A DNA stretch of 39,519 nt, from UHGV virus genome UHGV-0148166; one strand, written 5' to 3'. The notes under the pieces were generated by a model. That model made no database searches and was not told where the DNA came from. It saw only the letters and a program-made list of their open reading frames with translations. Positions 2,481 through 38,603 of this stretch are shown here, in pieces. Every line of letters starts with the position of its first letter. Positions within the stretch are counted from its first letter, which is position 1. The translations under genes were made by a program, and so were the position numbers. This stretch comes from a virus.

Positions 2481-3095
2481 ATGAAAATGAAAATGCAAAG
2501 TGATTTCAATTCAATGTTTGAAGAGTTCCAAAGACAGGTTGATGTTCCAGACCAATTACTAAATGCTCTTAAACGCATGGCAGAAGGACGTAATTACTAT
2601 TGGGGGTCTTCATATGAAACTGATGAAAGCCTTTCCGGAAGATTTTCTAGAGGTAAAAAGTCTTTAATACGTCCTGGAATACTCATTAACAGTATTGAAT
2701 CAATTCATTCATTGACGTGTGATTTTGATGTTGAATTTACTGATTTCATTTCTCCTGAATGGACGGTTTGTTATTTAAACGACGATTATGATTATCTTGG
2801 CGTTTATAGTTTAAGTGATGCATGGTTTAAACGTAATTTACAAAAATCAAATTTATTTTATATTGATACTACGGTAAAATTTCAGGGCAAGAAATATTTC
2901 TTTACTCTTATAGTTGATTCTGAAACGAAGCATGAAAATAAACGTATTCTTAGTAAAAAGAATATCTTAACTATTGTTGATGATCTTTTTGATAAATTCG
3001 TAGAAAATCCCAATTTTGAAAGCGATTTATTATTAGAAAAATTTGTTAAGGAATGTAGAGAATATGTCAAAGCCATCACTATACCTTCCAAGTAA
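2481..3095 (+). CDS. Hypothetical protein (204 aa) with C-terminal KFVKECREY motif shared with downstream membrane paralogs
   Basis: ORF with GGAGTAAATAGGA RBS; C-terminal motif similarity. Confidence 0.6.
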   Translation: MKMKMQSDFNSMFEEFQRQVDVPDQLLNALKRMAEGRNYYWGSSYETDESLSGRFSRGKKSLIRPGILINSIESIHSLTCDFDVEFTDFISPEWTVCYLNDDYDYLGVYSLSDAWFKRNLQKSNLFYIDTTVKFQGKKYFFTLIVDSETKHENKRILSKKNILTIVDDLFDKFVENPNFESDLLLEKFVKECREYVKAITIPSK

Positions 3096-3456
3096 ACCTG
3101 TGAAGTATGAACCAAAGCGTCAGCTAATTTCTACTGATGTGTTAATAGGTCCTGTGGTAGCTGTATCATTTGTGATTTTGGTGATTGCTGGAATGGTTAT
3201 AGACGTTATGACTGATATTGAATCTGGTGTAATATTTGGAGCAACACTAATTCTTCCATTGGTAGTTCCGCTTTTATTAGTACCTGTAAATTGGGTAGGA
3301 TACTGGTATCAAGGAAGACATTATCGTAAACGTGTACGTGATTGGAAAGCTCAGTGTAAAAAGATTAAAAAGGAACATCAGCTTAAGCTAGATATGTATG
3401 AATTTGATGAAATTATGAAATTTGTTAAGGAATCACGATGCAAAAGCCAAAACTAA
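3064..3456 (+). CDS. 2-TM membrane protein, paralog 1 (C-terminal tail KFVKESRCK)
   Basis: Two hydrophobic helices then basic tail; AAGGA RBS before ATG 3064; junction DNA nearly identical to that at 3420-3445. Confidence 0.6.
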   Translation: MSKPSLYLPSKPVKYEPKRQLISTDVLIGPVVAVSFVILVIAGMVIDVMTDIESGVIFGATLILPLVVPLLLVPVNWVGYWYQGRHYRKRVRDWKAQCKKIKKEHQLKLDMYEFDEIMKFVKESRCKSQN

Positions 3457-3800
3457 ATAAAGTCAAATATTCGCTTCCTGAGTCATTTTTAATTTTTGCT
3501 GTGGCGTTGGCTGCAGCTCTTGCGGGTAGTCTTTTTGGATTGTTAATTGACTGTCTTATTTTAAACATTGACGGCACAGTAAATATAATAGAAGTTTGGA
3601 GTGAACTTCATTATACTATAGCGATTTCATTATTTTCATTCTTTGGTATCATTTTATATTTTCATTATGATAATTTTAAAATAAATTGGCAAAGAAAAAA
3701 AGATTACAAAATACAATTAAAAGAATATAATAGCTACATGTCTTATATTGAAAATGAGTCAATGAAAGAGTTTGTGAGTGATTGTAGGAAAATTAAATGA
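3438..3800 (+). CDS. 2-TM membrane protein, paralog 2 (C-terminal tail EFVSDCRKIK)
   Basis: Two hydrophobic helices; AAGGA RBS; N-terminus MQKPKL resembles MSKPSL of paralog 1. Confidence 0.6.
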   Translation: MQKPKLNKVKYSLPESFLIFAVALAAALAGSLFGLLIDCLILNIDGTVNIIEVWSELHYTIAISLFSFFGIILYFHYDNFKINWQRKKDYKIQLKEYNSYMSYIENESMKEFVSDCRKIK

Positions 3801-15642: not shown

Positions 15643-15667
15643 ATTTCAAAAATTTTTCACAAAACGG

Positions 15668-15696
15668 TTTACAAGCATAAAGCTTTATGGTACTAT
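15668..15696 (+). promoter_or_regulatory. T4-type early promoter
   Basis: -35 TTTACA, 17-bp spacer, TGG-TACTAT; 22-nt identity with promoters at 1241 and 17824. Confidence 0.6.
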
Positions 15697-15730
15697 ACAA
15701 CTATCAACTGATACGGATTTGGAGAATAAA

Positions 15731-24657: not shown

Positions 24658-25131
24658 ATGTTATTGACTGGCAAATTATATAAAGAAGAAAAACAGAAAT
24701 TTTATGATGCACAAAACGGTAAATGCTTAATTTGCCAACGAGAACTAAATCCTGATGTTCAAGCTAATCATCTTGATCATGACCATGAATTAAATGGACC
24801 GAAAGCTGGAAAGGTACGTGGATTGCTTTGTAATCTTTGTAATGCAGCAGAAGGTCAAATGAAACATAAATTTAATCGTTCTGGCTTAAAGGGACAAGGC
24901 GTTGATTATCTTGAATGGCTAGAAAATTTACTTACTTATTTAAAATCCGATTACACCCAAAATAATATTCACCCTAACTTTGTTGGAGATAAATCAAAGG
25001 AATTTTCTCGTTTAGGAAAAGAGGAAATGATGGCCGAGATGCTTCAAAGTGGATTTGAATATAATGAATCTGACACCAAAACACAATTAATAGCTTCATT
25101 TAAGAAGCAGCTTAGAAAGAGTTTAAAATGA
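24658..25131 (+). CDS. 49: Endonuclease VII (Holliday-junction resolvase, gene 49)
   Basis: 157 aa; Zn-binding CLIC...C..C and HDHE motif; sequence as recalled for T4 gp49. Confidence 0.9.
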   Translation: MLLTGKLYKEEKQKFYDAQNGKCLICQRELNPDVQANHLDHDHELNGPKAGKVRGLLCNLCNAAEGQMKHKFNRSGLKGQGVDYLEWLENLLTYLKSDYTQNNIHPNFVGDKSKEFSRLGKEEMMAEMLQSGFEYNESDTKTQLIASFKKQLRKSLK

Positions 25132-25949
25132 ATGTAGTATATAAACTATCATTTATTAATAGAATTAATGCTAAAACCCCACCATATTATTACATTGGAA
25201 GTAAAACCAATTGCACTTTTGATGGAACGAATATTATTGATAAAAATGGTAAATTTTATTATTCGTCTTCGTCATCTTCTGAATTTCAAAAAGCCTTATT
25301 GAAAGAAACGCCGAAAGTTGAAATATTATATTTTCAATTAGTCGGAGATGAACAAATAACTAGCATTGAAGCTGAATTTCAAAAGAATATAGAAAAAGAT
25401 GTATGGAATAAAGAGTATTTTAATTTAGCATATGCTGATGGCAAATTTACGACATATGGTATTTCTCCTTCTAAAGAAACTAGAGAAAAGCAATCAATAA
25501 CCATGATTAAAAGAAATCGTAATAAAGGCAAAAATCATGGATTTTATGGAAAGCATCATACTAATTTAGCTAGAAAGAAAATATCAGAAGCTTCTAAAAA
25601 ATACTGGAAAGAAAATCCACATCGTGGATTTTCGCATACAAAGGAAGCTAAAATTAAAATTGGAATTTCATCTTCTATCAGGCATAAAGGAAGTGGAAAT
25701 CCGATGTATGGTGTAAAACCTTGGAAAACTCCGAGCGCAATTAAATCTGGTACTTGTATATTATGGTTAAAATACGCAGAAATTTTATATGATTATTTAA
25801 GTCCAGATTTTAAAAGTAAATCATCTATTTTTGCGGATTTAAACTTACCGAAATTTAGAATTGATAATTTCATCAAAAGGTTTAAAATGGGTTGGAACCC
25901 ATATTTAGACGAAGAATTTCAAAAGGATAAATTAGAATTATGTCTTTAG
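25128..25949 (+). CDS. GIY-YIG homing endonuclease (Seg-like, 273 aa)
   Basis: VVYKLSF...YYIGSK motif, NUMOD-like repeats, AT-rich; N-terminus paralogous to terminal ORF 39243. Confidence 0.75.
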   Translation: MNVVYKLSFINRINAKTPPYYYIGSKTNCTFDGTNIIDKNGKFYYSSSSSSEFQKALLKETPKVEILYFQLVGDEQITSIEAEFQKNIEKDVWNKEYFNLAYADGKFTTYGISPSKETREKQSITMIKRNRNKGKNHGFYGKHHTNLARKKISEASKKYWKENPHRGFSHTKEAKIKIGISSSIRHKGSGNPMYGVKPWKTPSAIKSGTCILWLKYAEILYDYLSPDFKSKSSIFADLNLPKFRIDNFIKRFKMGWNPYLDEEFQKDKLELCL

Positions 25950-27757
25950 AAAAAGATGTTTTAAATTTTATTTCAAATAAAGATAAAGAATTAAATACAG
26001 AAAACGCCAACAAAGATTCTCGCGTCTTTCCAACAAAAAGAGATTTAATGGCCGGTATTGTTTCTAAACATATCGCTTGTCGTATTCTTCCAAGTCATAT
26101 TGTAAATGCCCATAATGTTGGATTAATTCATTTTCATGATTTAGATTACAGTATATCATTGCCTTTTACTAATTGCTGTTTAGTAGATTTAAAAGGAATG
26201 CTTGAGAACGGGTTTAAGCTCGGTAATGCACAGATTGAAACTCCTAAATCAATCGGTGTTGCTACTGCGATTATGGCACAAATTACTGCGCAAGTTGCTT
26301 CCCATCAATATGGCGGAACGACTTTTGCTAATGTAGATAAAGTACTTTCTCCTTATGTTAAACGCACCTATGCAAAACATATCGAAGACGCAGAAAAATG
26401 GCAAATCGCCGATGCGTTAAATTATGCTCAATCTAAAACAGAAAAAGACGTATACGATGCATTCCAAGCTTATGAATATGAAGTAAATACTCTCTTTAGT
26501 TCAAACGGACAGACTCCTTTTGTAACAATTACATTTGGTACAGGAACTGACTGGACTGAACGAATGATTCAGAAAGCAATTCTGAAAAATCGTATTAAAG
26601 GTCTTGGTCGTGATGGGATAACTCCTATTTTCCCTAAGCTTGTTATGTTTGTTGAAGAAGGTGTTAATCTTTATAAAGACGATCCGAACTATGATATTAA
26701 GCAGCTTGCTCTAGAGTGTGCAAGCAAAAGAATGTATCCTGATATTATTTCAGCTAAGAACAATAAAGCTATCACTGGTTCATCTGTTCCTGTTTCTCCA
26801 ATGGGTTGCCGTAGTTTCTTGAGCGTATGGAAAGATTCGACTGGTAATGAAATTCTTGATGGACGTAATAATCTTGGTGTTGTAACACTGAATCTTCCTC
26901 GCATCGCGTTAGATTCTTATATTGGAACACAGTTCAATGAACAGAAATTTGTTGAATTATTCAATGAACGAATGGATTTATGTTTTGAAGCTTTGATGTG
27001 TAGAATTAGTTCCTTAAAAGGAGTTAAAGCGACTGTTGCTCCTATTCTTTACCAAGAAGGTGCATTCGGGGTTCGTCTTAAACCTGATGACGATATAATT
27101 GAGTTATTTAAAAATGGTAGAAGTTCAGTGTCCCTAGGATACATTGGTATTCACGAATTGAATATTCTTGTCGGTCGTGATATTGGACGAGAAATTTTAA
27201 CTAAAATGAATGCTCATCTTAAACAGTGGACTGAAAGAACCGGATTTGCTTTTAGTTTATATTCTACTCCTGCTGAAAATCTTTGTTATCGCTTCTGTAA
27301 ACTCGATACAGAAAAATATGGAAGTGTAAAAGATGTTACCGATAAAGGTTGGTACACTAATAGTTTCCACGTTTCAGTAGAAGAAAATATTACTCCGTTT
27401 GAAAAGATTTCTCGTGAAGCGCCATATCATTTCATTGCGACAGGTGGTCACATTTCTTATGTTGAACTTCCTGATATGAAAAATAACCTAAAAGGTCTTG
27501 AGGCCGTATGGGATTATGCTGCACAACATTTAGATTATTTTGGTGTTAATATGCCAGTAGATAAATGTTTTACATGTGGAAGTACCCATGAAATGACTCC
27601 TACTGAAAACGGATTTGTTTGTTCTATTTGTGGAGAAACTGATCCTAAAAAGATGAATACCATAAGAAGAACATGCGGCTATCTTGGAACTCCTAGCGTT
27701 GTTCCATGGAATTTAGGTAAAATGAAAGAAATGGTAAAACGAGTAAAACATGCATAG
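25940..27757 (+). CDS. nrdD: Anaerobic ribonucleoside-triphosphate reductase NrdD (intron-less)
   Basis: 605 aa continuous ORF; C-terminal Zn ribbon CFTCGS...CSICG and glycyl-radical motif RRTCGYLG. Confidence 0.95.
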   Translation: MSLEKDVLNFISNKDKELNTENANKDSRVFPTKRDLMAGIVSKHIACRILPSHIVNAHNVGLIHFHDLDYSISLPFTNCCLVDLKGMLENGFKLGNAQIETPKSIGVATAIMAQITAQVASHQYGGTTFANVDKVLSPYVKRTYAKHIEDAEKWQIADALNYAQSKTEKDVYDAFQAYEYEVNTLFSSNGQTPFVTITFGTGTDWTERMIQKAILKNRIKGLGRDGITPIFPKLVMFVEEGVNLYKDDPNYDIKQLALECASKRMYPDIISAKNNKAITGSSVPVSPMGCRSFLSVWKDSTGNEILDGRNNLGVVTLNLPRIALDSYIGTQFNEQKFVELFNERMDLCFEALMCRISSLKGVKATVAPILYQEGAFGVRLKPDDDIIELFKNGRSSVSLGYIGIHELNILVGRDIGREILTKMNAHLKQWTERTGFAFSLYSTPAENLCYRFCKLDTEKYGSVKDVTDKGWYTNSFHVSVEENITPFEKISREAPYHFIATGGHISYVELPDMKNNLKGLEAVWDYAAQHLDYFGVNMPVDKCFTCGSTHEMTPTENGFVCSICGETDPKKMNTIRRTCGYLGTPSVVPWNLGKMKEMVKRVKHA

Positions 27758-27769
27758 GGTTAAACACCA

Positions 27770-28402
27770 ATGAATTATGACAGAATCTATTCAAATCTAG
27801 TTAATTCTGCTGAACACCCATCTAAGCCCCGTCAAACTAAAGCCGGGTATGAACTTCATCATATAATTCCAAGAAGCATGGGTGGTCCAGATGATTTAGA
27901 CAACTTAGTATTTTTAACTTATAAGGCCCACTATACTGCTCACCATTTATTGGCTAAAATATATGGTGGAAAGATGTATGATGCATATTGGATAATGAGT
28001 AATAGTAAGCATAGAAAAGTTACTTCTTCACAATACGCGTATGCAAAAGCTAAGAAATTTGAAAATCAGCGTGGCGCAAAAAGAAGCGATAAAACTAAGA
28101 AGCTAATGAGCATAGCTAGGTCTAAAGTAACTCTTCCTGATGATTTTGGAAAAAGGATATCTGATGGGCTAACAGGAAGAACTTTGTCTACTAGTCATAA
28201 AGAGCATATCAAAAATAGTTCTAGAAATCGCTTTAACACCAAAACGGTTATTGGCTATTCACCAGACGGAAATACAATAGAACTAACTGGAGCAACTGAA
28301 ATAAGAAATGCAGGATTTTTTCATTCTGCTGTTTATAAATGTTGCAAAGGAATTCAATCTATTCATAAGGGATATACTTGGAAATATAAAGATGAATTAT
28401 GA
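27770..28402 (+). CDS. HNH homing endonuclease (Mob-like, 210 aa)
   Basis: HNH motif ELHHIIPRSMGG...DNLVFLT..AHYTAHH; NUMOD-like repeats; first 7 codons MNYDRIY duplicate the nrdG start. Confidence 0.75.
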   Translation: MNYDRIYSNLVNSAEHPSKPRQTKAGYELHHIIPRSMGGPDDLDNLVFLTYKAHYTAHHLLAKIYGGKMYDAYWIMSNSKHRKVTSSQYAYAKAKKFENQRGAKRSDKTKKLMSIARSKVTLPDDFGKRISDGLTGRTLSTSHKEHIKNSSRNRFNTKTVIGYSPDGNTIELTGATEIRNAGFFHSAVYKCCKGIQSIHKGYTWKYKDEL

Positions 28403-28862
28403 TAGAATATACCCGTGCTGCTTTGTTAATGGTCCTGGATGCAGGGTCGTTCTCTTCGTCACTGGATGTTTGCATAAATGCGAAGGTTGTTATAATCGTA
28501 GTACTTGGAATGCTCGTAACGGACAGTTATTCACTATGAATACCGTTAAAGAACTTGCGTCCCATTTAAGCAAATCGTATATCCAAGGCCTTACCTTAAC
28601 CGGTGGTGACCCACTTTATCCACAGAACCGAGAAGAGATTTCAAATTTAGTTTCTTGGGTTAAAGCAAGATTTCCGGAGAAAGATATCTGGTTGTGGACA
28701 GGATATAAGTTTGAAGATATTAAACAACTAGAAATGCTTAAATATGTTGATGTTATTATTGATGGGAAGTATGAGAAAAATCTTCCGACTAAAAAGCTGT
28801 GGCGAGGATCAGATAATCAGCGGCTTTGGTCAAATACCGATGGGGTGTGGAAACATGATTAA
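28392..28862 (+). CDS. nrdG: Anaerobic RNR activating enzyme NrdG (radical SAM)
   Basis: 156 aa from ATG 28392; Cys cluster CLHKCEGC; the track's longer ORF is an upstream extension. Confidence 0.9.
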   Translation: MNYDRIYPCCFVNGPGCRVVLFVTGCLHKCEGCYNRSTWNARNGQLFTMNTVKELASHLSKSYIQGLTLTGGDPLYPQNREEISNLVSWVKARFPEKDIWLWTGYKFEDIKQLEMLKYVDVIIDGKYEKNLPTKKLWRGSDNQRLWSNTDGVWKHD

Positions 28863-33208: not shown

Positions 33209-34411
33209 ATGAAAGTATGTATTTTTATGGCTCGAGGTCTTGAAGGTTGCGGTGTAACTAAATTTTCTCTTGAGCAGCGTGATTGGTTTATTAAAAATGG
33301 TCATGAAGTAACTTTGGTTTATGCTAAAGATAAATCATTTACTCGTAATTGTGCGCATGATTATAAATCATTTTCAATTCCGGTTTTATTAGCAAAAGAA
33401 TACGATAAAACACTTAAGCTGGTAAATGATTGTGATATTCTAATTATCAATTCAGTTCCTGCTACTTCGGTTGAAGAAGACACTATTAATAACTATAAAA
33501 AAATTATTGATAACATTAAACCTTCTGTTCGTGTTGTAGTTTATCAACATGACCATTCTTCTCTTTCTTTGCGTCGAAATTTGGGATTAGAAGAAACTGT
33601 TCGTCGAGCTGATGTTATTTTTAGCCATTCTGATAATGGTGATTTTAATAAAGTTCTGATGAAAGAATGGTATCCTGAAACAGTTTCTTTGTTTGATGAT
33701 ATTGAAGAAGCACCTACAGTATATAATTTTCAGCCTCCTATGGATATTGCGAAGGTTCGATCAACCTACTGGAAAGATGTTTCTGAAATTAACATGAATA
33801 TCAACCGTTGGATTGGTCGTACGACTACATGGAAAGGTTTTTACCAGATGTTTGATTTTCACGAAAAACATCTTAAACCTGCAGGACTAAGTACTATTAT
33901 GGAAGGTCTGGAACGTTCTCCAGCGTTCATTCCTATTAAAGAAAAAGGAATTCCATATGAGTATTATCGTCTTCATCAAGTAGACCAAATTAAAATTGCT
34001 CCTAATTTGCCAACGCAAATTCTTGACCGTTATGTAAATAGCGAAATGCTTGAACGCATGAGTAAATCCGGATTTGGTTATCAGTTGAGTAAGTTGGACA
34101 AAAAATATCTACAACGTTCTTTAGAATATACTCATCTCGAGCTTGGTGCATGTGGAACAATTCCGGTATTTTGGAAATCTACTGGCGAAAATTTAAAATT
34201 CCGTGTTGATAATACTCCTTTGACCTCGCATGATAGCGGTATCATTTGGTTTGATGAAAATGATATGGAATCAACGTTTGAACGTATTAAAGAACTGTCA
34301 TCTGACCGAGCTCTTTATGACCGTGAGCGAGAAAAAGCATATGAATTTTTGTATCAGCATCAAGATTCAAGCTTCTGCTTTAAAGAACAGTTTGACATTA
34401 TTACAAAATAA
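33209..34411 (+). CDS. agt: DNA alpha-glucosyltransferase
   Basis: 400 aa; N-terminus MKVCIFMARGLEGCGVTKF and length match T4 alpha-gt as recalled. Confidence 0.85.
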   Translation: MKVCIFMARGLEGCGVTKFSLEQRDWFIKNGHEVTLVYAKDKSFTRNCAHDYKSFSIPVLLAKEYDKTLKLVNDCDILIINSVPATSVEEDTINNYKKIIDNIKPSVRVVVYQHDHSSLSLRRNLGLEETVRRADVIFSHSDNGDFNKVLMKEWYPETVSLFDDIEEAPTVYNFQPPMDIAKVRSTYWKDVSEINMNINRWIGRTTTWKGFYQMFDFHEKHLKPAGLSTIMEGLERSPAFIPIKEKGIPYEYYRLHQVDQIKIAPNLPTQILDRYVNSEMLERMSKSGFGYQLSKLDKKYLQRSLEYTHLELGACGTIPVFWKSTGENLKFRVDNTPLTSHDSGIIWFDENDMESTFERIKELSSDRALYDREREKAYEFLYQHQDSSFCFKEQFDIITK

Positions 34412-34450: not shown

Positions 34451-34591
34451 ATGATATTTCTTGGATATGTGATACTTTTTCTTGCATTTTATCTATTCAC
34501 TAGAGCATGCTGGATTGGTTTCTTTAGCACACCAGATGGGTTTATTTCAATAATTTTATTTTGCATTTCAATGACGGTTCTTGATATATGA
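34451..34591 (+). CDS. Small hydrophobic membrane protein (46 aa; 47.1 position)
   Basis: GGAG RBS; hand-translated; ATGA overlap with gene 47. Confidence 0.45.
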   Translation: MIFLGYVILFLAFYLFTRACWIGFFSTPDGFISIILFCISMTVLDI

Positions 34592-35607
34592 AAATTTTAA
34601 ATTTAGGTGATTGGCATTTAGGCGTTAAAGCTGATGATGAGTGGATTCGCGGTATTCAAATTGATGGAATTAAGCAAGCGATAGAATATTCTAAGAAAAA
34701 TGGAATTACGGTATGGATTCAATACGGTGATATTTTTGATGTGCGAAAAGCGATCACGCATAAAACTATGGAGTTTGCCCGTGAAATAGTTCAAACGCTT
34801 GATGATGCTGGAATTACATTACACACTATTGTAGGAAATCACGATCTCCACTATAAAAATGTAATGCATCCAAATGCCTCTACTGAGCTTTTGGCTAAAT
34901 ATCCTAATGTTAAAGTATATGATAAGCCTACTACAGTAGATTTTGACGGGTGTTTGATTGATTTGATTCCTTGGATGTGCGAAGAAAATACTGGTGAAAT
35001 TCTTGAGCATATCAAAACTTCATCTGCTTCTTTTTGTGTTGGTCACTGGGAACTGAATGGATTTTATTTTTATAAAGGAATGAAATCTCATGGTCTTGAA
35101 CCTGATTTCCTTAAGACTTATAAAGAAGTGTGGTCTGGTCACTTCCATACTATCTCTGAGGCTGCAAACGTCAGATATATTGGGACACCATGGACACTAA
35201 CTGCAGGTGACGAGAATGACCCTCGTGGGTTCTGGATGTTTGATACAGAAACAGAACGAATGGAATTTATTCCAAATAATACTACCTGGCATCGTAGAAT
35301 TCATTATCCATTTAAAGGAAAAATTGACTATAAAGATTTTACAAATCTATCAGTACGTGTTATAGTAACTGAAGTAGACAAAAATCTAACGAAGTTCGAA
35401 TCTGAACTAGAAAAAGTTGTGCATTCATTACGAGTTGTGTCAAAGATTGATAACTCTGTCGAGTCAGATGACAGTGAAGAAGTTGAAGTTCAATCGCTTC
35501 AGACATTAATGGAAGAGTATATTAATGCAATTCCAGACATCACTGATTCTGACCGTGAAGCACTTATTCAATATGCAAATCAGCTATATGTAGAGGCAAC
35601 ACAATGA
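34588..35607 (+). CDS. 47: Recombination endonuclease subunit gp47 (Mre11-like)
   Basis: 339 aa; phosphoesterase motifs GDWHLG, GDIFD, GNHD, GHFH. Confidence 0.93.
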   Translation: MKILNLGDWHLGVKADDEWIRGIQIDGIKQAIEYSKKNGITVWIQYGDIFDVRKAITHKTMEFAREIVQTLDDAGITLHTIVGNHDLHYKNVMHPNASTELLAKYPNVKVYDKPTTVDFDGCLIDLIPWMCEENTGEILEHIKTSSASFCVGHWELNGFYFYKGMKSHGLEPDFLKTYKEVWSGHFHTISEAANVRYIGTPWTLTAGDENDPRGFWMFDTETERMEFIPNNTTWHRRIHYPFKGKIDYKDFTNLSVRVIVTEVDKNLTKFESELEKVVHSLRVVSKIDNSVESDDSEEVEVQSLQTLMEEYINAIPDITDSDREALIQYANQLYVEATQ

Positions 35608-35867
35608 CTTTTGATGAATTTAAAAATGTTATGATGAGTCAGCATTTTGAATGCGAAGTAAAAGATGATATTGGGCATAAAGAAATTATTGAATACTGGT
35701 TTGAACCACTAGAGGTTGAAGATAATTGTATTAAAAAGGTTACAGTCTGCACTGACTGGGCTGTATCTTTTAACTTCAACATTTTAGATAATGACACACC
35801 TAAATCATTGCGAGATATGGCTGTATCTTGTATTAAGGATGCGTATTGTGAAGTTTTCGACATTTGA
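35604..35867 (+). CDS. Hypothetical small protein (87 aa; 46.2 position)
   Basis: ATGA overlap with gene 47. Confidence 0.5.
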   Translation: MTFDEFKNVMMSQHFECEVKDDIGHKEIIEYWFEPLEVEDNCIKKVTVCTDWAVSFNFNILDNDTPKSLRDMAVSCIKDAYCEVFDI

Positions 35868-36054
35868 CATTAATGATGAATTCATAGCAAATATTGATTA
35901 TACCGAAGAAGATTCTAGATATGTTGGAATAATTTATATTACATCAAAAACAGCGCAAGGTGTTGTTTGCATGGCTGAATTTGATGAATACTTTTTAGAT
36001 TATGATGATATGATAGAATGGTCTAAAAGATACATTAAAAGGAATCTTTTGTGA
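35848..36054 (+). CDS. Hypothetical small protein (46.1 position), GTG start
   Basis: AAGGA RBS before GTG; first 12 codons (VKFSTFDINDEF) near-duplicate of the HNH gene start at 36051. Confidence 0.4.
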   Translation: MKFSTFDINDEFIANIDYTEEDSRYVGIIYITSKTAQGVVCMAEFDEYFLDYDDMIEWSKRYIKRNLL

Positions 36055-36905
36055 AGAATTTTAAACTTGACATTAATGATGAATTTTTAATAAAGGAATT
36101 AGTTGAAAAATTAGCGTTGAGTGAAGAAGACGCCAAGTCTTACATTAATTTTATTTCTATGAATTCAACTGTTAAAACTCCAGGTAAAACGGAAGCACAC
36201 CACGTGCTTCCTAAATCAATATTTCCTGAATATTTAAAATCTACATGGAATTTAGTTAATTTAAGTCATTTTAATCATTTTAAAGCACACTTCTTATTAG
36301 CAAAAGGTAAAAATGGAAAAATGCTAAATGCTTTAAATAGAATGATGTCAGGGAAAACATATAAAAATTTATCTTTAGCCGAAGTTGATTTAATAGCTGC
36401 TGAATATAGTTTTATAAAACAAGATGTAAGTGACACAATATCAAAAAGGCTTCAACAGTATTATTCAAATCCGCAAAATAGAAATGCTGCTAGAGAAAGG
36501 GCATTAAAATATTTTTCAGTAGCAAAAAATAGGAAAGATAACAAAGAAAGATTAAATAATTTTAAAACAAAACAAAAAATTTCAATGGCTTCAAGGGAAT
36601 GGTTTAATAACGAAGAAAACAAAATTAAACACCAAAAGGCTGTTCGTGCTGCTTTATCAAAACCTGAATATAAAATAGCTATATCAAATTCAGTAGCTGC
36701 TAGTTGGAAAAATCCGGAGATTAGAAAAGCTCATATAGCATCTAGACGAAAAGGCTATCATTGGGATAATAAAGATAAATTGTATGAATTGTGGATATCA
36801 TATAATCGTCCTAAACATGTGATGTTTAGGAAAATGTTAGTTAAGAATGGATATCCAATAGAGGCTTCATTACAGGCTTTAGTTAAAGAATTTTCTTCAT
36901 TGTGA
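36051..36905 (+). CDS. HNH homing endonuclease (Mob-like, 284 aa)
   Basis: EAHHVLPKS...NLVNLSHFNHFKAH HNH motif; NUMOD-like repeats; very AT-rich; GTG start with AAAGGA RBS. Confidence 0.7.
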   Translation: MKNFKLDINDEFLIKELVEKLALSEEDAKSYINFISMNSTVKTPGKTEAHHVLPKSIFPEYLKSTWNLVNLSHFNHFKAHFLLAKGKNGKMLNALNRMMSGKTYKNLSLAEVDLIAAEYSFIKQDVSDTISKRLQQYYSNPQNRNAARERALKYFSVAKNRKDNKERLNNFKTKQKISMASREWFNNEENKIKHQKAVRAALSKPEYKIAISNSVAASWKNPEIRKAHIASRRKGYHWDNKDKLYELWISYNRPKHVMFRKMLVKNGYPIEASLQALVKEFSSL

Positions 36906-36920
36906 ACAATTGGATACAAA

Positions 36921-38603
36921 ATGAAATCATTTAAACTTAATAGAGTAAAATATAAAAATATAATGTCAGTTGGTCAAAATGGAGTTGACATTCAATTAGA
37001 TAAGGTTCAAAAAACTCTTATTACTGGACGAAATGGCGGTGGTAAGTCTACTATGCTAGAAGCCATCACATTTGGGCTTTTTGGCAAGCCATTTCGTGAT
37101 GTAAAGAAAGGCCAATTAATAAACAGCACAAATAAGAAAGAACTTTTAGTTGAACTGTGGATGGAATATGATGAGAAAAAGTACTATATCAAAAGAGGAC
37201 AAAAACCAAACGTTTTCGAAATCACCGTTAACGGTACACGTCTTAATGAATCTGCCAGCAGTAAAGATTTCCAAGCAGAATTTGAACAGCTTATCGGAAT
37301 GTCATATTCCAGTTTCAAGCAGATTGTTGTCCTTGGTACAGCAGGGTATACCCCTTTCATGGGTTTGTCGACCCCTGCGCGAAGAAAGCTTGTGGAAGAC
37401 CTGCTTGAGGTAGGAACATTAGCTGAAATGGATAAGCTTAATAAAGCACTAATACGTGAATTAAATTCACAAAACCAAGTGCTTGACGTTAAAAAAGATA
37501 GTATTATCCAACAAATTAAAATATATAATGATAACGTTGAACGCCAGAAAAAATTAACGGGTGACAATCTTACTCGTCTGCAAAATATGTATGATGATTT
37601 GGCAAAAGAAGCTAGAACGCTAAAATCGGAAATAGAAGAAGCTAATGAAAGATTAGTTAATATTGTTTTAGATGAAGACCCGACTGATGCATTTAATAAA
37701 ATCGGTCAAGAAGCAGTTTTAATTAAATCAAAAATTGACTCATATAATAAAGTCATTAATATGTATCACGAAGGTGGATTATGTCCAACCTGCTTGTCAC
37801 AATTGAGTTCCGGTGATAAAGTTGTTTCTAAAATTAAAGATAAAGTTTCTGAATGCACGCATTCGTTTGAACAGCTTTCAACACACCGTGATAATTTAAA
37901 AGTTCTCGTTGATGAATACCGAGATAATATTAAAACTCAGCAGACGTTGGCAAATGATATTCGCAATAAAAAGCAATCTCTGATCGCAGCAGTAGATAAA
38001 GCTAAAAAGGTTAAAGCGGCTATAGAAAAAGCATCTTCTGAGTTTATTGACCATGCTGATGAAATAGCACTGCTTCAAGAAGAACTTGATAAAATTGTTA
38101 AGACAAAAACTAATTTAGTAATGGAAAAATACCACCGAGGAATTTTGACTGATATGCTCAAAGATTCTGGTATTAAAGGTGCTATTATTAAAAAGTACAT
38201 TCCATTATTTAATAAGCAGATTAACCATTATCTTAAAATAATGGAAGCGGATTATGTGTTTACATTAGATGAAGAATTTAATGAGACAATTAAATCCCGT
38301 GGTCGCGAAGATTTTAGTTATGCTTCATTTAGTGAAGGTGAAAAGGCACGAATCGATATTGCTCTTTTATTTACTTGGCGTGATATTGCTTCTATTGTAT
38401 CTGGTGTTAGTATTAGTACATTAATACTCGATGAAGTGTTTGATGGGTCATTTGATGCCGAAGGTATTAAAGGTGTAGCTAATATTATAAATTCAATGAA
38501 AAACACTAATGTTTTTATAATTTCGCATAAAGACCATGACCCGCAAGAATACGGTCAGCATCTTCAAATGAAGAAAGTTGGTCGATTTACTGTAATGGTT
38601 TAA
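36921..38603 (+). CDS. 46: Recombination endonuclease subunit gp46 (Rad50/SbcC-like)
   Basis: 560 aa; Walker A GRNGGGKST, CPTC zinc hook, signature FSEGEKARIDIALLF, Walker B LILDEVFD. Confidence 0.93.
   Translation: MKSFKLNRVKYKNIMSVGQNGVDIQLDKVQKTLITGRNGGGKSTMLEAITFGLFGKPFRDVKKGQLINSTNKKELLVELWMEYDEKKYYIKRGQKPNVFEITVNGTRLNESASSKDFQAEFEQLIGMSYSSFKQIVVLGTAGYTPFMGLSTPARRKLVEDLLEVGTLAEMDKLNKALIRELNSQNQVLDVKKDSIIQQIKIYNDNVERQKKLTGDNLTRLQNMYDDLAKEARTLKSEIEEANERLVNIVLDEDPTDAFNKIGQEAVLIKSKIDSYNKVINMYHEGGLCPTCLSQLSSGDKVVSKIKDKVSECTHSFEQLSTHRDNLKVLVDEYRDNIKTQQTLANDIRNKKQSLIAAVDKAKKVKAAIEKASSEFIDHADEIALLQEELDKIVKTKTNLVMEKYHRGILTDMLKDSGIKGAIIKKYIPLFNKQINHYLKIMEADYVFTLDEEFNETIKSRGREDFSYASFSEGEKARIDIALLFTWRDIASIVSGVSISTLILDEVFDGSFDAEGIKGVANIINSMKNTNVFIISHKDHDPQEYGQHLQMKKVGRFTVMV

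Follow-up and report, generated by a model that had tools for sequence, protein, structure and literature searches.

A predicted Mob-family homing endonuclease gene at the start of gene 46 in a T6-like Tequatrovirus and the composite start region at its 5' junction

Genes and features of the locus

The window, by which we mean the whole 39,519-nt stretch of DNA analysed here, is from a T6-like Tequatrovirus and carries genes 46.2 and 46.1, an HNH endonuclease ORF of 284 codons and gene 46 on the same strand (Table 1). The 3' end of gene 46.2 overlaps the start of 46.1 by 20 nt, and 46.1 is full-length from its GTG codon, since residues 1-66 cover profile positions 1-66 of 66 in Pfam PF17589 and the protein matches positions 1-68 of 68 in PHROG 2327. 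The TGA stop codon of 46.1 in turn overlaps the next GTG (as GTGA), and both GTG codons (35848 and 36051) are annotated starts in T4, the former being also where the DUF5487 model begins. An earlier, sequence-only reading of the locus had noted that both ORFs open with GTGAAG after an AAGGA Shine-Dalgarno sequence, which is indeed the case. Gene 46 is a single ORF of 560 residues, and the spacer in front of it contains a weak GGA Shine-Dalgarno sequence (36912-36914).

Table 1. Coordinates of the features in and around the 46.1-gene 46 interval.
Feature	Position	Strand	Basis or remark
Gene 46.2	35604-35867	+	Pfam T4_Y03C, E 2.6e-43; position as in T4 46.2
AAGGA Shine-Dalgarno of 46.1	35835-35839	+	8 nt 5' of GTG; read from sequence
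Gene 46.1 (DUF5487), GTG start	35848-36054	+	Pfam PF17589, E 4.5e-50; same start in T4 46.1 annotation
Repeat copy A	35864-35882	+	End of 46.1 codon 6 to first two bases of codon 12 (F-DINDEF)
AAGGA Shine-Dalgarno	36039-36043	+	7 nt 5' of endonuclease GTG; context identical in T4 and RB32
Native gene 46 start, codons 1-6, GTGAAGAATTTTAAACTT (VKNFKL)	36051-36068	+	Now 5' end of endonuclease ORF
Predicted free-standing Mob-family HNH endonuclease gene, 284 aa, intact	36051-36905	+	PHROG 655
Repeat copy B	36067-36085	+	Inside endonuclease ORF (L-DINDEF); 46.1-derived copy
Insert relative to endonuclease-less phages, 870 nt, in frame	36069-36938	+	Alignments with T4 and RB32
Spacer, 15 nt	36906-36920	+	From endonuclease stop (TGA, 36903-36905) to gene 46 ATG; read from sequence
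Imported replacement gene 46 start ATGAAATCATTTAAACTT (MKSFKL)	36921-36938	+	Differs from native start at 5/18 nt
Gene 46, SbcC/Rad50-like recombination nuclease subunit	36921-38603	+	Pfam AAA_23, SMC_N; T4 annotation match

The endonuclease ORF is, judged by its sequence, a predicted Mob-family homing endonuclease gene (HEG) and hence a known kind of mobile element rather than a new system. Its product matches the PHROG 655 family 'homing endonuclease' over residues 1-282 (E 7.8e-45) and T4 MobD at 30% identity (E 2e-11, tblastn), with a further match to RB43 MobE, and it carries an HNH motif, EAHHVLPKS...WNLVNLSHFNHFKAH, with H50, H51, N67, H76 and H80 invariant in an alignment of six homologues. 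A word-indexed protein search returned only six HEG homologues, and tblastn against phage genomes was more useful; no Pfam HNH model matched at E < 0.1 and NCBIfam gave no match. Alignments with T4 and RB32 place the HEG outside any intron or intein, as a presence/absence polymorphism at a fixed site.

Endonuclease-less relatives and the shared start regions

The proposal of the sequence-only reading that the HEG has inserted between 46.1 and gene 46 is borne out by comparison with relatives, since the 284-aa gene is present in 72 Tequatrovirus records and missing from T4 and about 446 others, in which 46.1 and gene 46 abut without interruption. Aligned with T4 and RB32 the insert comprises 870 nt, and its boundaries may be shifted by up to 9 nt because the 9-nt direct repeat TTTAAACTT is found at both ends (36060-36068 and 36930-36938). 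In the HEG-less genomes that were read, the 46.1 stop codon overlaps the gene 46 start (as GTGA), which reads GTGAAGAATTTTAAACT, and in the window these 18 nt open the endonuclease ORF instead; in T4, gene 46 begins on the 46.1 stop with GTGAAGAATTTTAAACTT followed directly by AATAGAG. The 18-nt start in the window is identical to that of T4 at 18/18 positions and is the same in RB32 and in two IMG/VR contigs, which were the only contigs found when IMG/VR was scanned with conserved gene 46 5' sequence and which are both HEG-less.

Since the in-frame cassette sits after codon 6 of gene 46, the HEG ORF is predicted to use the Shine-Dalgarno sequence, the GTG and the first six codons of gene 46, the AAGGA in front of it being the one that serves gene 46 in HEG-less phages, and it retains the stop/start overlap with 46.1. 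At its 3' end the cassette provides a stop codon, the spacer and foreign codons of Mosigvirus type, which now open the gene 46 ORF while the native 18 nt are kept as the HEG 5' end. The first 15 nt of this replacement start (ATGAAATCATTTAAA) are identical to the gene 46 start of the HEG-less Mosigvirus O157 typing phage 6. Phage Ac3 was considered as a naturally diverged HEG allele and rejected; its block is recoded toward E. coli-preferred codons and is therefore uninformative on natural junction variants.

The DNA similarity between the start regions of 46.1 and the HEG that had been claimed from inspection likewise holds upon pairwise alignment, which joins 35846-35891 and 36049-36094 without gaps over 46 nt at 78% identity. 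The offset is 203 nt and, the alignment being gap-free, the two regions are in phase relative to their start codons, with 29/36 nt matching when counted from both GTGs. An exact 19-mer, TTGACATTAATGATGAATT, forms the core of the alignment; exact repeats of at least 19 nt fall into only two families in the window, of which this is one. The encoded N-terminal peptides are VKFSTFDINDEF for 46.1 and VKNFKLDINDEF for the HEG. Copy A is the only copy in the HEG-less T4 and RB32 and is the source copy, codons 7-12 of the HEG (DINDEF) being a copy at the DNA level of codons 7-12 of 46.1. C36066 is gene 46-specific and G36069 is 46.1-specific, and by sequence the putative crossover from gene 46 to 46.1-type sequence is placed in the TT at 36067-36068. 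A single stretch of 35 nt here combines parts of gene 46, of 46.1 and of the endonuclease gene.

The HEG start also resembles the gene 46 start of the window, as noted earlier, with 13/18 nt matching between GTGAAGAATTTTAAACTT and ATGAAATCATTTAAACTT and TTTAAACTT common to both. The 9-mer match is in itself not significant, and its meaning is supplied by the HEG-less relatives.

These comparisons divide the earlier suggestion that the HEG 5' end stems from a duplicated flanking initiation region. It applies to the 17-19 nt encoding DINDEF, which are a true copy of 46.1, but not to the Shine-Dalgarno sequence and the first 18 nt, which are the original gene 46 initiation region and identical to T4. 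There is indeed a duplicated gene 46 start, but it is the 3' end of the insert and an imported Mosigvirus-type allele. The GTGAAG shared by 46.1 and the HEG is a likeness that the HEG-less T4 already shows, its 46.1 and gene 46 starts having TTGTGAAG in common.

That two AT-rich start regions resemble each other by chance, with no shared history, could be entertained for the GTGAAG and AAGGA likeness of the T4 46.1 and gene 46 starts, which is short enough, but as an account of the repeat this deserves next to no credence and is refuted by the exact 19-mer and by the HEG opening with 18 nt that are exactly those of gene 46 in T4. With up to three mismatches allowed, the window holds two copies of TTGACATTAATGATGAATT against 0.07 expected from shuffles, and none of 60 Markov-simulated windows (0/60) contained any exact 19-mer repeat.

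The repeat would alternatively be functional, as a translational operator or binding site shared by the two genes, with selection or gene conversion keeping the 46.1 and HEG start regions alike. It could for instance be bound by a translational repressor, or by the HEG protein, which would then autorepress on DNA resembling its own homing site. Such a role would agree with both copies being equally far from a GTG that follows an AAGGA Shine-Dalgarno sequence, with the HEG start region still having the left half of the gene 46 junction as it is when uninterrupted, and with the fact that T4 intron endonucleases autorepress by way of operators resembling their homing sites (PMC2988022). It is however very improbable. 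In T2, MLP2, GRNsp7, NRG-P0074 and BEU50 synonymous changes have arisen independently in the two 19-mers (17-18/19 identical, and 17-19/19 over the phages as a whole), and since the substitutions are different ones in different phages, identity of the DNA or RNA is not maintained. Furthermore, HEG-less phages have just one copy, the motif is absent from the Mosigvirus and Gelderlandvirus relatives, and neither the T4 junction nor any of the three start regions folds as RNA into a structure better than those of shuffles (z-scores at the starts of -0.28 to +1.28). A hairpin-regulated start as in I-TevI or segB was dropped, since folding was no better than shuffles. Sigma-70-like promoter sites occur in the region at the frequency seen in shuffles, and promoter and terminator scans of the region found no T4 late-promoter box TATAAATA. 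The independent drift of the two copies argues for a recombination scar rather than a signal, and the shared start region is in all probability such a scar at the 5' junction of the free-standing Mob-family HEG.

Related endonucleases and known Mob systems

The closest relatives of the HEG (42-44% identical) are found directly upstream of gene 46, as in the window, in Mosigvirus (AV112, F2) and in Gelderlandvirus (CF-SP2, Melville), and each of these genes likewise begins at a resident start codon. They differ from the HEG of the window, which follows an intact 46.1, in that they replace 46.1 or directly follow gene 47, in that their N-termini are unrelated to VKNFKLDINDEF, and in that their 3' ends overlap the gene 46 start. 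The Mosigvirus HEG takes the place of 46.1 but keeps its first 22 nt (MTKTDYE, first seven codons), and homology between AV112 and a HEG-less phage stops at AV112 position 1465 to return at the gene 46 start, position 2292. Between genera the first 24 HEG residues are 17% identical as opposed to 55-58% in the catalytic and C-terminal parts (58% between AV112 and the window in the C-terminal 69 residues), which fits a captured, chimeric N-terminus. The reverse notion that 46.1 is a decayed HEG N-terminus is not supported, BLASTP giving 14/39 identities that lie mostly in DINDEF.

The Mosigviruses NRG-P0074 and BEU50 furthermore contain a Tequatrovirus-type patch of about 1.26 kb (corresponding to about 35769-37045 of the window) that comprises the 3' end of 46.2, 46.1, the HEG and the first 85-125 nt or so of gene 46, and that is flanked by Mosigvirus-type sequence, otherwise 62-86% identical. 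We infer from these sequences that the HEG has spread laterally with co-conversion of flanking markers. Co-conversion of flanks is also known for T4 MobE (PMC2988022; PMC2790892), to be compared with the end of the patch 83-125 nt into gene 46. MobE (nrdA-nrdB) is likewise free-standing, its translation being coupled to that of the upstream gene by a stop/start overlap (PMC2988022), and its nicks fall in the 5' region of the gene downstream, at nrdB nt 122-126 (PMC2790892). The activity of MobE has been shown experimentally, whereas that of the gene 46 HEG is predicted, and mobE is not described as sharing start codons with another gene.

T4 MobC (nrdD-nrdG) is also a free-standing HNH protein of PHROG 655, and its ORF, like the present one, starts on the stop codon of the upstream gene (nrdD). 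The parallel with nrdG drawn in the sequence-only reading proved to be real: in both T4 and the window mobC starts with ATGAATTATGACAGAATCTAT on the nrdD stop, which is the native nrdG start in the mobC-less DalCa, and thereby uses the start and first seven codons of nrdG (MNYDRIY), just as the gene 46 HEG takes the start of its downstream gene, whereas nrdG restarts from a duplicate within the mobC 3' end. Most relatives are without the mobC cassette. The two differ in the target, which is nrdG for mobC, in the extra segment from a third gene, which mobC does not have, and in the 3' end, which overlaps the nrdG restart in mobC but is separated by the 15-nt spacer in the in-frame insert at gene 46. 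A further Mob HEG (P0003) opens with 13 nrdG codons.

The MobA element of the topoisomerase gene (T4 genes 39/60), for which many independent insertions are known, brings along a homologous region, HomR, that stands in for its target (bioRxiv 10.1101/2022.08.31.505936). Like the gene 46 HEG it is a Mob-family HNH cassette within coding sequence that brings its own diverged copy of the target and leaves the host gene functional, and the imported ATGAAATCATTTAAACTT, identical to the native GTGAAGAATTTTAAACTT at 13/18 positions, gives the gene 46 cassette the HomR feature. MobA however divides its host gene between two proteins, with a deletion of 55-75 nt and an added translational bypass, whereas gene 46 remains undivided and has lost no sequence, its displaced native codons having become the HEG N-terminus. 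By analogy with MobE and MobA, the HEG presumably targets gene 46 in its 5' region.

Origin of the junction and its implications

The junction probably arose in two steps. The immediate ancestor of the HEG would have been fused to the start of 46.1 with the rest of 46.1 replaced, as in the Mosigvirus relatives, and one-sided homing would have brought it into a phage in which 46.1 and gene 46 were both intact. On the right side homologous recombination would have taken place within gene 46. On the left, the end left by a break at gene 46 codon 6 would have paired in register with the similar 46.1 start (TTGTGAAG...TT), and its extension would have linked codons 1-6 of gene 46 with codons 7-12 of 46.1 and, beyond these, with the body of the HEG. 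Thereafter the enzyme is predicted to nick or cut HEG-less gene 46 alleles near the 5' end, with repair copying the HEG and its flanking DNA, and only in-frame joins would spread, because only those give the HEG a working translation start. Illegitimate repair of double-strand breaks at microhomologies is documented for one-sided homing in T4, and Mob genes are translationally coupled (PMC2988022). The fusion seen in Mosigvirus is a precedent and not the ancestor itself, since it occurs at codon 7 of 46.1 and not at codon 12 as here. Part of DINDEF could also be native to the HEG, since its relatives have (D/E)-(F/T) at about the same N-terminal position, and in that case the identity to 46.1 could have been extended by microhomology.

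Under this proposal a Tequatrovirus with 46.1 codons 1-12 fused to the HEG and without an intact 46.1 may be expected, and was absent among 50,697 phage records; of a 102-nt composite query that represents this intermediate, with the 12 codons joined directly to the HEG body, all full-coverage matches consisted of two pieces 305 nt apart, as in the window. The missing intermediate speaks for an origin in one step, in which one repair event would have placed the cassette at gene 46 codon 6 without such an ancestor. The invading or extending 3' end would then briefly have copied 17-19 nt of the nearby 46.1 start as templated filler by template switching, from the same or a co-infecting genome, before switching to the HEG donor at the GATGAATT microhomology. 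The copied segment is indeed just 203 nt off and in register, the T4 46.1 and gene 46 starts already have TTGTGAAG in common, HEG relatives have D/E-F/T at the right-hand switch point, and microhomology junctions are known from illegitimate T4 homing (PMC2988022). Two consecutive switches, both preserving the frame, would however be needed, and the Mosigvirus relatives demonstrate that fusion of the HEG lineage to the 46.1 start does occur. A single event is thus rather unlikely, and the route in two steps is the simpler one, since a fusion of this lineage to the start of 46.1 is actually seen.

The junction is unusually readable, since three genera offer relatives with and without the HEG from which the origin of every piece can be told, and it illustrates how a promoter-less selfish gene may gain translation signals from an essential host gene and repay it with a replacement start. 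This combination of start capture and replacement start recurs at mobC/nrdG. The proposed history predicts that the enzyme cuts within the first 100 nt or so of gene 46, and that crosses of T6 or T2 with T4 would result in marker exclusion around genes 46 and 47. It is doubtful whether capture of a host start region is a general rule for the establishment of Mob-family HEGs rather than an accident. If it were, the enzymes would break the gene downstream within its first few codons, only in-frame joins to the ribosome site and start codon of that gene would yield a mobile element, and the half-target kept at the HEG start could double as an operator limiting synthesis of the enzyme itself. The duplicated codons would in that case predict the cleavage sites of uncharacterised Mob genes, namely at codons 1-7 of gene 46 and at codons 7 or 13 of nrdG. 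For annotation, the GTG start of the HEG is to be read as the ancestral, conserved start of gene 46.

Likeness of the start regions

The stretch derives from a T6-like Tequatrovirus: over the surrounding 1.8 kb, identity is 99.5% with Shigella phage SHFML-11 and 98.9% with T6. The likeness between the starts of 46.1 and of the homing endonuclease gene (HEG) that follows it, first noticed in the sequence-only reading, is borne out by a pairwise alignment that runs gap-free over 46 nt at 78% identity, with the two regions 203 nt apart, and 29 of 36 nt match when counted from both GTGs. Its exact core, TTGACATTAATGATGAATT, constitutes one of only two families of exact repeats of at least 19 nt in the window, where no further copy is found with up to three mismatches (0.07 expected), and such exact repeats occurred in none of 60 simulated windows. 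The HEG start likewise resembles the gene 46 start, as had also been claimed, with 13 of 18 nt in common including TTTAAACTT.

The two copies of TTGACATTAATGATGAATT differ synonymously (GAC/GAT, AAT/AAC, GAT/GAC), in one or the other copy, in T2, MLP2, GRNsp7, NRG-P0074 and BEU50, where repeat identity is down to 17-18/19 and DINDEF is retained. Folding of the RNA of the three start regions and of the T4 junction gave no structure better than shuffled sequence, the frequency of promoter-like sites does not exceed that of shuffles, and the late-promoter box is absent from the region. Since the copies are not maintained and neither fold nor promoter stands out, we regard the repeat as a scar of past events rather than as a signal. 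The other exact repeat family of this length, TGGTACTATACAACTATCAAC, two copies of which are preceded by AAAAATTTTTCACAAAAC, may represent repeated early-promoter or intergenic modules.

Features of the locus and of related sites in the window
Feature	Position	Strand	Remark
TGGTACTATACAACTATCAAC repeats	1201-1265, 15648-15710, 17824-17848		
gene 49	24658-25131		
GIY-YIG/Seg-like homing endonuclease ORF	25128-25949		PHROG 7504, E 1.4e-33
nrdD	25940-27757		
HNH gene (mobC)	27770-28402		
nrdG	28392-28862		
a-gt	33209-34411	+	local gene order
47.1	between a-gt and 47	+	local gene order
gene 47	34588-35607	+	local gene order
46.2	35604-35867	+	Pfam T4_Y03C
patch content	~35769-37045		46.2 3' end, 46.1, HEG, first ~85-125 nt of gene 46
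46.1	35848-36054	+	Pfam DUF5487, E 4.5e-50, profile positions 1-66 of 66
TTGACATTAATGATGAATT	35864 and 36067		exact core of the repeat
HEG, 284-aa ORF	36051-36905	+	Mob-family HNH homing endonuclease
insert	36069-36938		870 nt (+/- 9-nt repeat)
palindrome in HEG	36191-36211		GGAAGCACACCACGTGCTTCC
gene 46	36921-38603	+	local gene order
second TTTAAACTT	36930-36938		return to T4-type sequence

The insert and the start of gene 46

In T4, gene 46 directly follows 46.1 with no HEG between them, and its start (...AAAAGGAATCTTTTGTGAAGAATTTTAAACTTAATAGAG) and the stop of 46.1 overlap in GTGA. Everything upstream of T4 gene 46, together with the gene's first 18 nt, is identical to the HEG ORF start in the window, which departs from T4 into the HEG after TTTAAACTT; T4-type sequence returns at the second copy of TTTAAACTT and continues into gene 46. 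The same pattern is seen against RB32, which carries the commoner HEG-less allele, and two IMG/VR contigs, and in the phage collection the uninterrupted 46.1/46 junction is present in 446 records and the HEG in 72. By these points of divergence and return the element is an insert after codon 6 of gene 46, and since 870 nt is divisible by three, gene 46 is in frame with the stop codon of the HEG.

Of the two copies of the gene 46 start, the left is native and today serves to initiate the HEG, and the right (ATGAAATCATTTAAACTT) arrived with the cassette; over its first 15 nt the latter equals the start that gene 46 has in a HEG-less Mosigvirus, whereas T4, RB32 and the two IMG/VR contigs, the HEG-less Tequatrovirus genomes that were read, have GTGAAGAAT. 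The HEG is thus shown to occupy the translation initiation region of gene 46, which itself uses an imported one. The earlier proposal, that the HEG had inserted with its 5' end derived from a duplicated start, is right as to the insertion and wrong as to where the duplicate lies, the left copy being native by comparison with T4 and RB32; its observation stands and its interpretation does so in part. Expression of the HEG presumably depends on the GTGA overlap with the 46.1 stop, by analogy with mobE, for which coupling to nrdA by overlap has been suggested (PMC2988022), and gene 46 would be reinitiated 15 nt past the HEG stop.

Directly adjoining the insertion point, the first ~25 codons of gene 46 in HEG-less Tequatroviruses occur as two alleles (RB32 extract 1266-1330 compared with T4 and Mosigvirus). 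The T4-type allele (LNRVKYKNIMSVGQNGID) is found at ≥99% identity in ~124 records and the commoner RB32-type (LNRVRYQNIMSVGGNPID), which has the Mosigvirus protein sequence, in the 90-95% band in ~372 records. This polymorphism could reflect past conversion or resistance to cleavage.

The endonuclease and the proposed origin of its 46.1-like segment

The HEG product is a Mob-family HNH homing endonuclease (PHROG 655, E 7.8e-45), 30% identical to T4 MobD, in which alignment with five homologues shows H50, H51, N67, H76 and H80 to be invariant; it is not recognised by Pfam and NCBIfam, and RefSeq labels it 'homing endonuclease' in T6 and relatives. The catalytic EAHHVLP segment is encoded by a near-perfect palindrome with a 9-bp stem, which a scan picked out as a minus-strand hairpin resembling a terminator.

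The six gene 46 codons are followed in the HEG by GACATTAATGATGAATT, matching 46.1 codons 7-12 (DINDEF) except for the last base of codon 12, and since C36066 is specific to gene 46 and G36069 to 46.1, the switch lies within the TT between them. The GTGAAG common to 46.1 and the HEG, previously taken as copied, does not belong to this copied segment, as the resemblance between the 46.1 and gene 46 starts already exists in T4; the two have TTGTGAAG in common and by our own count match at 12 of 18 nt in register from GTG. We infer that one-sided homing brought an ancestral HEG, by then joined to codons 1-12 of a Tequatrovirus-type 46.1, into a genome in which 46.1 and gene 46 were both intact. 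Its right end would have recombined homologously within gene 46, and the left end, after a break near codon 6 of gene 46, would have paired in register with the look-alike 46.1 start before its extension into the HEG. In T4 homing, illegitimate repair through microhomology of this kind is on record for cases in which homology is missing on one side (PMC2988022).

Outside the T6 type, the nearest homologues share 42-44% identity and likewise directly precede gene 46; they come from Mosigvirus (AV112, F2 and eight other records) and Gelderlandvirus (Melville, and a frameshifted copy in CF-SP2). In Mosigvirus the HEG takes the place of 46.1, the order in ~150 HEG-less Mosigviruses being 46.2-46.1-46, and homology between AV112 and a HEG-less Mosigvirus stops 22 nt into the 46.1/HEG ORF (ATGACGAAGACTGAYTATGAAA, MTKTDYE) and is back at the gene 46 start codon, so that a 46.1 start fused to a HEG does occur in nature. 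The predicted intermediate, 46.1 codons 1-12 joined to the HEG, was searched for among 50,697 phage records and not found, and it is possible that the segment arose in one step, as templated filler copied from the nearby 46.1 start.

In Gelderlandvirus the HEG start sits on the gene 47 stop codon, where a 46.1-like gene begins in S16 and gene 46 itself in STML-198. Between genera, HEG identity is 17% over the first 24 residues, 55% in the catalytic region and 58% over the C-terminal 69 residues, values consistent with an N-terminal part remade whenever the gene inserts and a C-terminal DNA-binding end that is conserved; the latter would recognise the conserved 5' part of gene 46. As in the MobA element, where HomR is a replacement copy of the target (bioRxiv 10.1101/2022.08.31.505936), the cassette brings a replacement copy, but unlike MobA it neither splits nor deletes host sequence. 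What is seen at the locus is a recombination scar with a good explanation, in a so far uncharacterised member of the known Mob family, and in the open-access papers searched no description was found of the chimeric start of the HEG or of the HEG's target.

Mobility, decay and the mobC parallel

In the Mosigviruses NRG-P0074 and BEU50, T6-type 46.1 and HEG lie inside a patch of ~1.26 kb that is 94-100% identical to the window, with the same left edge in both and the right edge at ~37004 in BEU50 and ~37045-37046 in NRG-P0074, and the DNA on both sides is Mosigvirus-type (62-86% identity in most 50-nt windows). Judged by these identities, the patch looks like homing with co-conversion across the genus boundary and indicates cross-genus transfer of the element; its right edge, 83-125 nt into gene 46, is reminiscent of the MobE nick at nt 122-126 of nrdB (PMC2790892).

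Frameshifts, the usual decay of homing endonuclease genes, affect the HEG in T2, RB51/RB68 (homologue P0002) and MLP2; these copies and that of CF-SP2 are split into two ORFs, at positions that differ between T2 and MLP2, and appear to be independent decay events. In Ac3 (OK040907.1), the equivalent of 36051-38603, from HEG start to gene 46 end, has ~73% DNA identity with nearly unchanged proteins and flanks 94-99% identical. The HEG start codon is changed from GTG to GTT, and gene 46 carries 342 synonymous and 28 non-synonymous codon changes (GC3 0.61 vs 0.24) toward E. coli-preferred codons (TTA to CTG, AAT to AAC). The record is given as a natural isolate, yet this block has the look of codon-optimised synthetic DNA or of contamination in the assembly. 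On the opposite strand, just past the end of gene 46, Ac3 has a further HNH endonuclease gene absent from the window (extract 2962-3675; 237 aa, starting MNYKLIYEKLI, with repeated CxxC...H motifs).

The parallel drawn with nrdG holds, since the HNH gene upstream of it, which is T4 mobC, and nrdG both begin MNYDRIY. In T4 the mobC start (ATGAATTATGACAGAATCTAT) lies on the nrdD stop, and the restart of nrdG (ATGAATTATGATAGAATTTAT) falls within the mobC 3' end, the first seven codons being common to both and 19 of 21 nt identical (T4 extract 1447-2539). Of 705 matching records no more than 32 extend across the mobC cassette, which is therefore missing from most, and in mobC-less DalCa the nrdG start itself is on the nrdD stop. 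The mobC gene sits on the native nrdG start, and the nrdG restart is a duplicate in the mobC 3' end. Another Mob HEG (homologue P0003) begins with 13 nrdG codons, and as other HNH genes in mobC's family also start MNY..IY, native similarity may have helped mobC to join. Upstream of nrdD, the GIY-YIG/Seg-like ORF lies between gene 49 and nrdD and overlaps both; at the equivalent position in T4, gene 49 abuts nrdD.
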